64,000 nucleotides of DNA. Origin: a virus. Lineage: Duplodnaviria; Heunggongvirae; Uroviricota; Caudoviricetes. Numbering within the stretch: the first letter of the stretch is position 1; every line of letters begins with the position of its first letter. Below are positions 19,028 through 20,985 of this stretch, piece by piece. The notes under the pieces were generated by a model, which ran no database searches, was not told the origin of the DNA, and worked only from the letters and a program-made list of their open reading frames with translations. The stretch is taken from positions 12,612-76,611 of the IMG/VR virus record IMGVR_UViG_3300032225_001769; one strand, 5' to 3'. A program made the translations under genes and the position numbers.

Positions 19028-19053
19028 TTTAATCTCCTAGTATTTTTTAATAT

Positions 19054-19191
19054 TTATAAAAAAGAAGCACCCTTTTCAGGGTGCTTGTTCTTAAATGCCT
19101 TAAGTCGTGCTTTTGCTTGTCGTAGTGCCTGAGGTTTGAGTTTCCTCTTCTGCTCCTTTTTGGAGTGATGATAGCGATTTGGAACTTGCAT
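19054..19191 (-). CDS. Small very basic protein (45 aa, not in ORF track) whose last codons form a terminator
   Basis: MQVPNRYHHSKKEQKRKLKPQALRQAKARLKAFKNKHPEKGASFL*. Has its own promoter. Confidence 0.75.
   Translation of the reverse strand: MQVPNRYHHSKKEQKRKLKPQALRQAKARLKAFKNKHPEKGASFL
19058..19086 (-). terminator. Intrinsic terminator inside the coding sequence of the 45-aa ORF
   Basis: AAGCACCCT-GAAA-AGGGTGCTT-CTTTTTT. Confidence 0.8.
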
Positions 19192-19213
19192 GGTTCTTTT
19201 TGTTTACGGTTAC

Positions 19214-19270
19214 ATTATACCAAAGAATCTACATTTTTCAATAGGTGTGTGCCAGTTTATTTATTGGCAC
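19214..19270 (-). promoter_or_regulatory. Promoter with perfect-arm palindrome GTGCCA-N10-TGGCAC (19249-19270) and TTGAAA-N16-TATAAT
   Basis: Read directly. Confidence 0.75.
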
Positions 19271-20985
19271 TAGAGTTCAGTTTTGTATGAGAATCCTTTT
19301 CTTTTTTCAAACTTAATCACACTGTTAAATTTATCTTCCAGTCCAATTTTATGAGAAATGACAAATATATTAGTATCTTTAATGTCGTACTTAATAATTT
19401 TTAAAAACTCCTCAGTTCCAAAATTATCTAGAGAACTATCAAAAATCTCATCAAAAATCATTAAATTTGTATTGACAGAATTTTTAACTCTCGCAACTTC
19501 TCTCCAGGCAAATACTAGAGCAAGATTAATTTTTGCCTTCTCACCTTCACTAAAAGAACTATAAGAAAAATCTTCGTGAATAGGTGACTTGATACTCTCA
19601 TTAAATTCTTCATCTAGATGAAAATTAATGTAAAAATCCATCATCTGCAAATAACGATTCACCTGCTGATTAATTAAAGGAAGATATTTTTTGATTATTT
19701 TAGTTTTCACACCATCATCTTTAAGAAGAGAGTATACAAAATCATAATGAATTATCTCTTCTCGCTTATCTCCTAAATTCTCAAATACCGTTTGAAGATT
19801 AGTTTGAAACTCTTCTAACTTTTCATGCTCAGTATTTTTATTTTCAAGTTGTTCGGTAAGTGTTTGAATTTCACTTTCCAAATCTCTAACCTGTCGTTGG
19901 TTAGAGGAAATCCTAGTATTGTTTTGGGAAATATCATTATTGAGTTTTGCAATTTCCTTAGATAAAGCAATAAATTGTCTTTCCCTCTCTTCTTCCAATT
20001 TTATAGATTCTTCAAGGTCTTTATATCCTTTCTGAAGTTCTTTTGCATTATTTTGGGAATCTGAAATTTTATTTAATCGAAACTCCTCATCAATTGTTTG
20101 AGTGCAAGTCGGACAAACCGTATTTTCGGTAAAGAATTTATGCTCTTTGGTAATTGTAGATACTTTTTGAGATATTTTGCCTTTTAGATTGCCCAATTTT
20201 TTCAATTTATCAGTCGCACCAATAACTTCCTCCTGTTCTTTAGTATAACCAAAGATACTTTCTTCAATAACCGAATTTTCAAGCATATACTTGTCAACTT
20301 CGTCAATTAAACTGACGATCTTTTGATTATTGGAATTTATATTGTCCTTTCCACGATTCTCTAATTGTTCAATAAAGTTTTTTTGCATTTTAACTTTATC
20401 TTTAAGAGAATCTTTCTTTAGTTCCAAAGATCTAATCAAATCCTTTCTCTGGCGAATCTTATCTTTAACCAGGGCATTCATTGAAGAAAAAATACGAATA
20501 TCCAATAGATCTTCAATCACTTCACGACGATGTGCCGTAGCCAGTTGCATAAAAGGTACAAAAGTGCTTGAACCCAGAATTACAATCTGGGTAAAACTGC
20601 GATAATTGACCTTTAAAATATTTTCTTCTAGAATTTTTTGATTTGCTCGATCATCTGCTTCTTTATGTAAAACAACCCCATTTACCTCAATATCAAACAC
20701 ACTTGGTTTAATTCCACGACGAACAAGATATTCTTTATTATTCACAGAAAACTCAATCTCTACCAGACAATCCTTTTCGTTGGTGCTGTTAGGGAGTTGA
20801 TTTTTGTTAATTTTACGAAATGATTTGTTAAAGAGAGCAAATGTGAGGGCATCTAGAAGAGTTGATTTTCCCGCACCATTCGTACCAACAATCAAGTTAG
20901 TTTGATTCTTTTGGAAGTCTATCTCAGTAAAATGCTGCCCGGTAGAAAGAAAATTCTTCCATCTAATTTTTTTAAAGATTATCAT
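19270..20985 (-). CDS. gp46: Recombination endonuclease subunit gp46 (SbcC/Rad50-like)
   Basis: GTNGAGKS, CPTC zinc hook, FSEGE signature, FDEIFD. Confidence 0.97.
   Translation of the reverse strand: MIIFKKIRWKNFLSTGQHFTEIDFQKNQTNLIVGTNGAGKSTLLDALTFALFNKSFRKINKNQLPNSTNEKDCLVEIEFSVNNKEYLVRRGIKPSVFDIEVNGVVLHKEADDRANQKILEENILKVNYRSFTQIVILGSSTFVPFMQLATAHRREVIEDLLDIRIFSSMNALVKDKIRQRKDLIRSLELKKDSLKDKVKMQKNFIEQLENRGKDNINSNNQKIVSLIDEVDKYMLENSVIEESIFGYTKEQEEVIGATDKLKKLGNLKGKISQKVSTITKEHKFFTENTVCPTCTQTIDEEFRLNKISDSQNNAKELQKGYKDLEESIKLEEERERQFIALSKEIAKLNNDISQNNTRISSNQRQVRDLESEIQTLTEQLENKNTEHEKLEEFQTNLQTVFENLGDKREEIIHYDFVYSLLKDDGVKTKIIKKYLPLINQQVNRYLQMMDFYINFHLDEEFNESIKSPIHEDFSYSSFSEGEKAKINLALVFAWREVARVKNSVNTNLMIFDEIFDSSLDNFGTEEFLKIIKYDIKDTNIFVISHKIGLEDKFNSVIKFEKRKGFSYKTEL

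Follow-up and report, generated by a model that had tools for sequence, protein, structure and literature searches.

A small basic gene family of T4-like cyanophages whose reading frame runs through a terminator hairpin and may be expressed from a non-stop message

A small open reading frame, found directly after gp46 in most relatives, is a real protein-coding gene of T4-like cyanophages. Structure prediction indicates that the encoded peptide, ∼37 residues in length, is a single long basic helix. Judged from the DNA, the gene layout resembles that of the bacterial ribosome-rescue factors ArfA and BrfA, and this layout is both real and conserved in the family. We assign a probability of roughly one half to the reading that the peptide is made from a non-stop mRNA and that its level depends on host tmRNA capacity.

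The gene is described here from the window, i.e. the whole 64-kb (64,000-nucleotide) stretch of DNA analysed, which comes from the IMG/VR record of a T4-like cyanophage (140.6 kb, 35.6% G+C) with the small open reading frame just 3′ of gp46. The features below are given in window coordinates, and all are on the minus strand.

19270–20985, minus strand: gp46, SbcC-like recombination endonuclease subunit, the upstream gene (phrog_77, E 1.3e-181)
19249–19270, minus strand: 22-nt palindrome GTGCCA-N10-TGGCAC, which shares the final base of the gp46 stop and is situated shortly before the −35 box
19214–19241, minus strand: sigma-70-type promoter, TTGAAA, 16 nt, TG-extended TATAAT (TGgTATAAT), 11/12 matches
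19054–19191, minus strand: small basic open reading frame (P0001; phrog_3309), ATG at 19191, 45 codons, TAA at 19056–19054
19081–19191, minus strand: conserved core, codons 1–37 (from pN/pS), with a predicted basic helix at residues 11–36 (AF2)
19065–19086, minus strand: terminator hairpin within the open reading frame, codons 36–42, 9 bp, GAAA loop
19086–19078, minus strand: 5′ arm of the hairpin (codons 36–38)
19077–19074, minus strand: GAAA loop
19073–19065, minus strand: 3′ arm of the hairpin
19057–19064, minus strand: U tract, consisting of C, six T and A, and encoding Ser-Phe-Leu
19054–19056, minus strand: TAA stop, 9–11 nt past the stem and right behind the U tract
19051–19058, minus strand: TATAAATA, a T4-type late-promoter motif of the next gene, which includes the TAA
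18863–19027, minus strand: downstream 54-codon open reading frame with a strong AGGAG ribosome-binding site and no PHROG match

An earlier note on this DNA had described a 45-residue product rich in Lys, Arg and His, a hairpin, a U tract and a TAA beyond the tract, and each of these elements is present on the minus strand where that note placed it.

The evidence for a protein-coding gene comes from the pattern of substitutions. Over codons 4–36 of 71 distinct sequences, pN/pS is 0.18 in the reading frame versus 1.37 and 2.48 in the off frames, and entropy is 34 at third codon positions versus 11.5 and 6.6 at the other positions. Codons for Ser, Arg and Leu change between codon families among relatives, and 15 residues of the conserved region are invariant. 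The first 37 codons are under purifying selection. AlphaFold2 predicts one helix at residues 11–36, with a mean pLDDT of 74. The succession of promoter, ∼150 nt and terminator would also fit a small RNA, and the window copy has no Shine-Dalgarno sequence ahead of its ATG, which raises the question of whether the locus is a promoter-to-terminator small RNA or a chance open reading frame and not a protein gene at all. This is very improbable in view of the coding-frame substitutions, the strong AAGGAGG ribosome-binding sites carried by marine relatives and hundreds of protein-level homologues. The non-coding RNA reading was rejected, as Rfam and tRNA searches of the locus gave no match and substitutions follow a coding frame.

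The product matches phrog_3309, a family with function unassigned, at E 2.5e-11, with residues 1–36 aligned to profile positions 1–37 of 42. A tblastn search gave matches in 164 phage records, all of cyanophages or marine viruses; a protein search gave 321 homologues, and an exhaustive profile search 142 clusters at 50% identity, nearly all of them short proteins. In all, no fewer than 164 phage records and over 570 viral contigs contain the family, which is present in both ocean and freshwater cyanophages. The gene has been left unannotated in several reference cyanophage genomes (S-SKS1, S-RSM4, S-SZBM1, P-SSM4). In Prochlorococcus phage P-HM2 it is PHM2_134 (T4-like gene cluster 587, phrog_3309), which belongs to the same family, is situated directly after gp46 and has an in-frame hairpin. 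PHM2_134 differs in that its annotation gives a 66-residue hypothetical protein extending over part of the next gene. In the 2010 gene-cluster table, coordinates for cluster 587 stand in only one genome column (124954–125154, those of P-HM2).

A host origin was not found among 185,579 prokaryote genomes, where the four matches all resemble phage contigs. Three of 201 Cyanobiaceae genomes match; one match is a phage contig, and the other two are a divergent 45-residue relative with a normal stop. These two (L255:1134–1475 and L256; genomes G111 and G197) are 45–46 residues long and retain TPNWQHHSRK and the C-terminal helix, with the middle replaced by a Gly/Cys-rich stretch. Their neighbours mostly lack a Pfam match, one being an AAA_33 kinase-like protein, and the relative is either a host gene or a prophage remnant. 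Members of the family (L082, L084, L085) are also found in one Prochlorococcus single-cell genome and in metagenome-assembled genomes labelled Methanobacteriota, Poseidoniales and Sphingobacteriales. The contigs are probably cyanophage contigs binned into these genomes, because they carry gp46-like and peptidase genes. In a few relatives (L202:592–954, L237:595–1104, P0155, P0167, P0168, P0170) the basic helix is extended by a hydrophobic stretch with an Ala-x-Ala-like motif at its end and a His-rich tail behind it. These extended forms look like signal peptides or membrane anchors, which would be a different use of the same N-terminal module.

The hairpin in the window has the properties of an intrinsic terminator, with a 9-bp stem that contains five G-C pairs, a GAAA loop and a CUUUUUUA tail. 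The 51-nt hairpin RNA folds with −17.1 kcal/mol (z = −4.05), and 0 of 200 shuffled sequences fold as well. Five other clean terminator-like sites are present in the 140.6-kb record, and in all of these the stop of the upstream gene is before or at the start of the stem. The small open reading frame is the only gene-like frame in the record that spans a whole terminator with no rival gene ending upstream of it.

Transcription termination usually takes place 7–9 nt after the stem. Most terminated transcripts would therefore end before the UAA, at +9 to +11, is complete. The UAA starts 9 nt after the stem, and so some terminated transcripts may include it. A ribosome close behind the polymerase could also suppress termination.

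The layout was followed through the family in 240 viral loci retrieved with three query alignments, from which 191 distinct members were counted. At the DNA level, the coding frame runs through the hairpin and terminator in the window and in 175 of the 191 relatives, the stop being past the hairpin. In the main, gp46-linked clade, 0 of 138 sequences have an in-frame stop in the hairpin region; stops are found there in the off frames of 30/138 and 35/138. The hairpin begins in conserved codons 34–36, so a stop before it is impossible and only stops in the loop or 3′ arm could be avoided; with ∼24% of off-frame hairpins containing a stop and about ten independent stem types, the deficit corresponds to a p of only roughly 0.05. 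Among the 138 main-clade members the hairpin takes 91 distinct sequences, which fall into about ten unrelated stem types and occupy one shared codon position. When the gene is found in other genomic contexts, the open reading frame and hairpin have moved together. The U tract is poor in many marine relatives, which have 3–5 T in 9.

What follows the hairpin is not conserved. The distance from stem to stop ranges from 1 to 681 nt (median 21), and stop position varies accordingly. Changes in the length of the T run give tails that end in SFL, FFINI or FFYK, and the frame crosses the late-promoter motif in each of the three registers, in 26, 20 and 3 sequences. Marine forms, such as PHM2_134 of P-HM2, continue for 26–120 nt, into the start of the next gene. 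The encoded tails comprise 0–35 residues, plus one fusion of ∼230 residues; even close strains have different tails, and these extend over the start of the next gene. The earlier note had predicted a conserved N-terminal part joined to variable, terminator-encoded tails, and this is the pattern seen, with a conserved part of ∼37 residues. That such tails vary between strains, collide with the next gene's start and are tolerated indicates that they are seldom translated, and if so, the selected peptide would normally be made from a truncated message. This variation is the strongest indirect argument for expression of the non-stop kind. In one locus (L053:1500–2316) an extra T in the U tract joins the small open reading frame in frame to the downstream gene, giving 271 codons; this fusion may be genuine or may stem from a homopolymer error in sequencing.

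The earlier note had taken homologues that stop before the hairpin to speak against its reading. None is found in the gp46-linked clade, but about 15 of the 191 relatives keep a conventional ending with a normal stop. Short forms of 38–46 residues have a normal stop soon after the helix, and these come from a sample biased towards divergent members. In about seven relatives the stop lies within a terminator hairpin; it does so in L170, L175 and L180, as well as in three relatives with AT-rich hairpins (L174, L189, L190). In four relatives the stop is 0–6 nt ahead of a tRNA gene: 6 nt separate the two in L171, L179 and L181, and in L210 (597–722) the stop adjoins tRNA-Leu. The open reading frame of L188 (598–726) enters tRNA-Ile by 19 nt and has its stop in the D-loop region, where RNase P cleavage would take the stop off. 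Some family members stand at the head of phage tRNA arrays. No 3′ element was seen in L168, L187, L223 and L232. Nearly every member thus has an RNA 3′-end-forming element where it ends, and the strictly stop-less form is a clade trait that is not found in every member. Since the short forms have normal stops, the peptide would work without a stop-less message in some phages.

These short forms are also what would be expected if the gene encodes an ordinary small basic phage protein, for instance a nucleic-acid-binding partner of the gp46/gp47 nuclease, whose unconstrained C-terminus overlaps the operon terminator by chance, the genome being compact. The functional protein would then come from transcripts that include the stop, either by read-through or as longer (late) messages, with no designed role for tmRNA. 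Such an explanation is possible, if less probable. The start of the hairpin in conserved Lys codons means that the overlap is partly forced, and homology to any rescue factor is absent. Gene order also suggests co-expression: among 183 distinct loci, 44 have the small open reading frame overlapping the upstream long open reading frame, often as TAATG with gp46, and another 46 have it within 25 nt. An ordinary protein does not readily account for 175 distinct sequences free of a stop in the loop or 3′ arm, where relatives of other clades (L170, L175, L180 above) have gained one, nor for retention of the hairpin when the open reading frame occurs in other contexts. The strain-variable tails and the long fusion would, moreover, be costly if they were routinely translated.

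The same gene order bears on the promoter. The earlier note had credited the gene with its own strong promoter; the site is present and has 11 of 12 matches, but it is derived in the window's lineage, and about half of the relatives adjoin or overlap the upstream gene. The promoter is the best site in its region, where promoter-like sites number 5 compared with 5.4 expected and so are not above chance. It is part of a palindrome-bearing insert confined to the window and five relatives (L003, L004, L005, L041, L074). On the minus strand the region at 19192–19300 presents, in order, the true gp46 end, the palindrome, the −35 box and a repeat, in degenerate form, of the 3′ end of gp46, and this second copy supplies the −10 box. 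The insert looks like a small mobile promoter cassette.

Downstream, the TAA of the small gene is within the late-promoter motif of the next gene. The late promoter of cyanomyoviruses has been given as NATAAATA (Kindly see PMC2984593). In the 64-kb window all 8 copies of TATAAATA are on the minus, coding strand, between 8623 and 55586, and their total is not above chance. Two of these motifs (19051, 18817) precede the two small open reading frames downstream of the small basic gene.

Another explanation would be that the open reading frame is mainly a translation-dependent 3′-end device and the peptide is secondary. Ribosomes that read the hairpin might modulate termination and hence read-through to downstream genes; alternatively, a ribosome or tmRNA at the 3′ end might set the stability of the gp46 message by non-stop mRNA decay. 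Consistent with this are the constant location of the open reading frame at an RNA 3′-end element, terminator or tRNA 5′ end, the frequent stop/start overlaps with the upstream gene, and the promoter of the next gene directly behind the terminator. However, in a pure leader selection would not hold 15 residues invariant and pN/pS at 0.18 over 37 codons in very divergent phages, and the downstream genes have a promoter motif of their own; the explanation is unlikely. Leader-peptide attenuators are similar in having a short open reading frame whose translation covers a terminator hairpin. They differ in that the phage peptide sequence is strongly conserved, the downstream genes have their own promoter motif and no alternative anti-terminator fold is seen.

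The reading preferred here, a peptide made from a non-stop message, would work as follows. In the window, and in about nine of ten sampled relatives, the terminator lies directly behind the conserved part, and the frame meets a stop only where the sequence beyond happens to supply one. Transcripts ending at the terminator would lack a stop codon, and ribosomes would run to the 3′ end of such messages. While host tmRNA-SmpB is plentiful, the peptide would receive a tag and be degraded; if trans-translation becomes saturated or declines in the course of infection, untagged peptide would be released and accumulate. By analogy, the regulatory logic of ArfA and BrfA may thus have been reached by an unrelated protein.

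To our knowledge, ArfA and BrfA are the only well-studied families that are switched on by failure of trans-translation via stop-less messages. ArfA (YhdL, PF03889) is found in Gamma- and some Betaproteobacteria. The Lys-His motif of the ArfA and BrfA tails contacts U534 of 16S rRNA. Both factors are made from non-stop messages and gated by trans-translation, and in both a basic C-terminal part with the Lys-His motif occupies the empty mRNA channel (PMC6881298; PMC8012679). BrfA has a rho-independent terminator within its open reading frame and undergoes SsrA-mediated degradation unless trans-translation fails (PMC6881298). Cyanobacteria have tmRNA and SmpB, with ArfB in about half and ArfA in none (PMC11633108).

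The phage gene resembles BrfA (YqkK of Bacillus subtilis, RF2-dependent; PMC6881298) in encoding a small basic protein with a terminator in the coding region before the stop, and in having a basic stretch a few residues before the truncated end, with a Lys-His pair at window residues 36–37. In contrast to BrfA, it has no sequence similarity and no conserved Lys-His pair in the family, is predicted as one helix where BrfA has helices plus a strand, is virus-encoded, and is often directly behind another gene, whereas BrfA stands alone. At the position of K36-H37, [KR]H is present in 50 of 191 relatives and Leu occupies the second place in 124; the Lys-His motif of the ArfA and BrfA tails is therefore not conserved among these 191. 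With ArfA the phage gene shares a hairpin within the open reading frame and a stop at variable distance downstream, and the active ArfA product, which lacks the encoded tail, may be counted as a further shared feature. The two differ in that Escherichia coli arfA is cut by RNase III, while the phage hairpin looks like a terminator. There is also a six-residue N-terminal look-alike, RYHHSK in the phage peptide and RYQHTK in ArfA, of which positions 6–7 vary in the phage family.

The earlier note saw no direct sequence homology to ArfA or BrfA, and profile searches and hhalign agree. Searches of Pfam with the small protein (E up to 10) gave no match, PF03889 had none in six frames of the phage record, and a profile search of all PDB chains, including ribosome-bound rescue factors, gave 0 matches at E up to 10. 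No named relative was found in NCBIfam and the ESM Atlas. An hhalign comparison with 12 ArfA sequences gave a probability of 0.33%, with six aligned columns that correspond to the look-alike. Homology to ArfA was rejected, as the look-alike is not significant and PF03889 is absent. A literature search gave no report connecting ribosome-rescue factors with cyanophages, none describing a stop-less gene of this kind in a virus or for cyanobacterial ribosomes, and no mapping of cyanophage transcript 3′ ends.

As to what the peptide does, most likely it is a ribosome- or RNA-binding basic helix, and the leading candidate role is back-up release of stalled ribosomes. A co-fold of the peptide with Synechocystis RF2 (RF2_SYNY3), used as a stand-in, scored 0.46, compared with 0.00 for the best of three controls. 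This low-scoring pass gives weak support: among 80 solved complexes 58 reach the mark, as do 2 of 110 mismatched pairs, and passes at 0.60 or under comprise only 7 of the 80 solved complexes, plus both of the passing mismatches. At least 77% of contacts are shared between the runs, and the partner pLDDT is at least 57. The pass may represent a generic attraction of a basic helix to an acidic protein, or it may reflect memory of solved ArfA/BrfA-RF2 complexes. That T4-like cyanophages carry their own release-factor-dependent alternative ribosome-rescue factor is a doubtful, though specific, proposal. If it holds, the stop-less message would make the putative factor appear only once the tmRNA-SmpB of the infected cell is exhausted, and ribosomes stalled on degraded host mRNA debris would be freed for late phage protein synthesis. 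It would then be without precedent both in viruses and on cyanobacterial ribosomes.

The small basic gene family is abundant in cyanophages yet largely unannotated. Whatever the function of the peptide, the family provides a clean natural test case for the use of stop-less messages. If the layout works as in ArfA and BrfA, these phages would monitor the translation-rescue capacity that Prochlorococcus and Synechococcus have during infection, and might also repair it, which would add a new level to the takeover of hosts among microbes of global importance.
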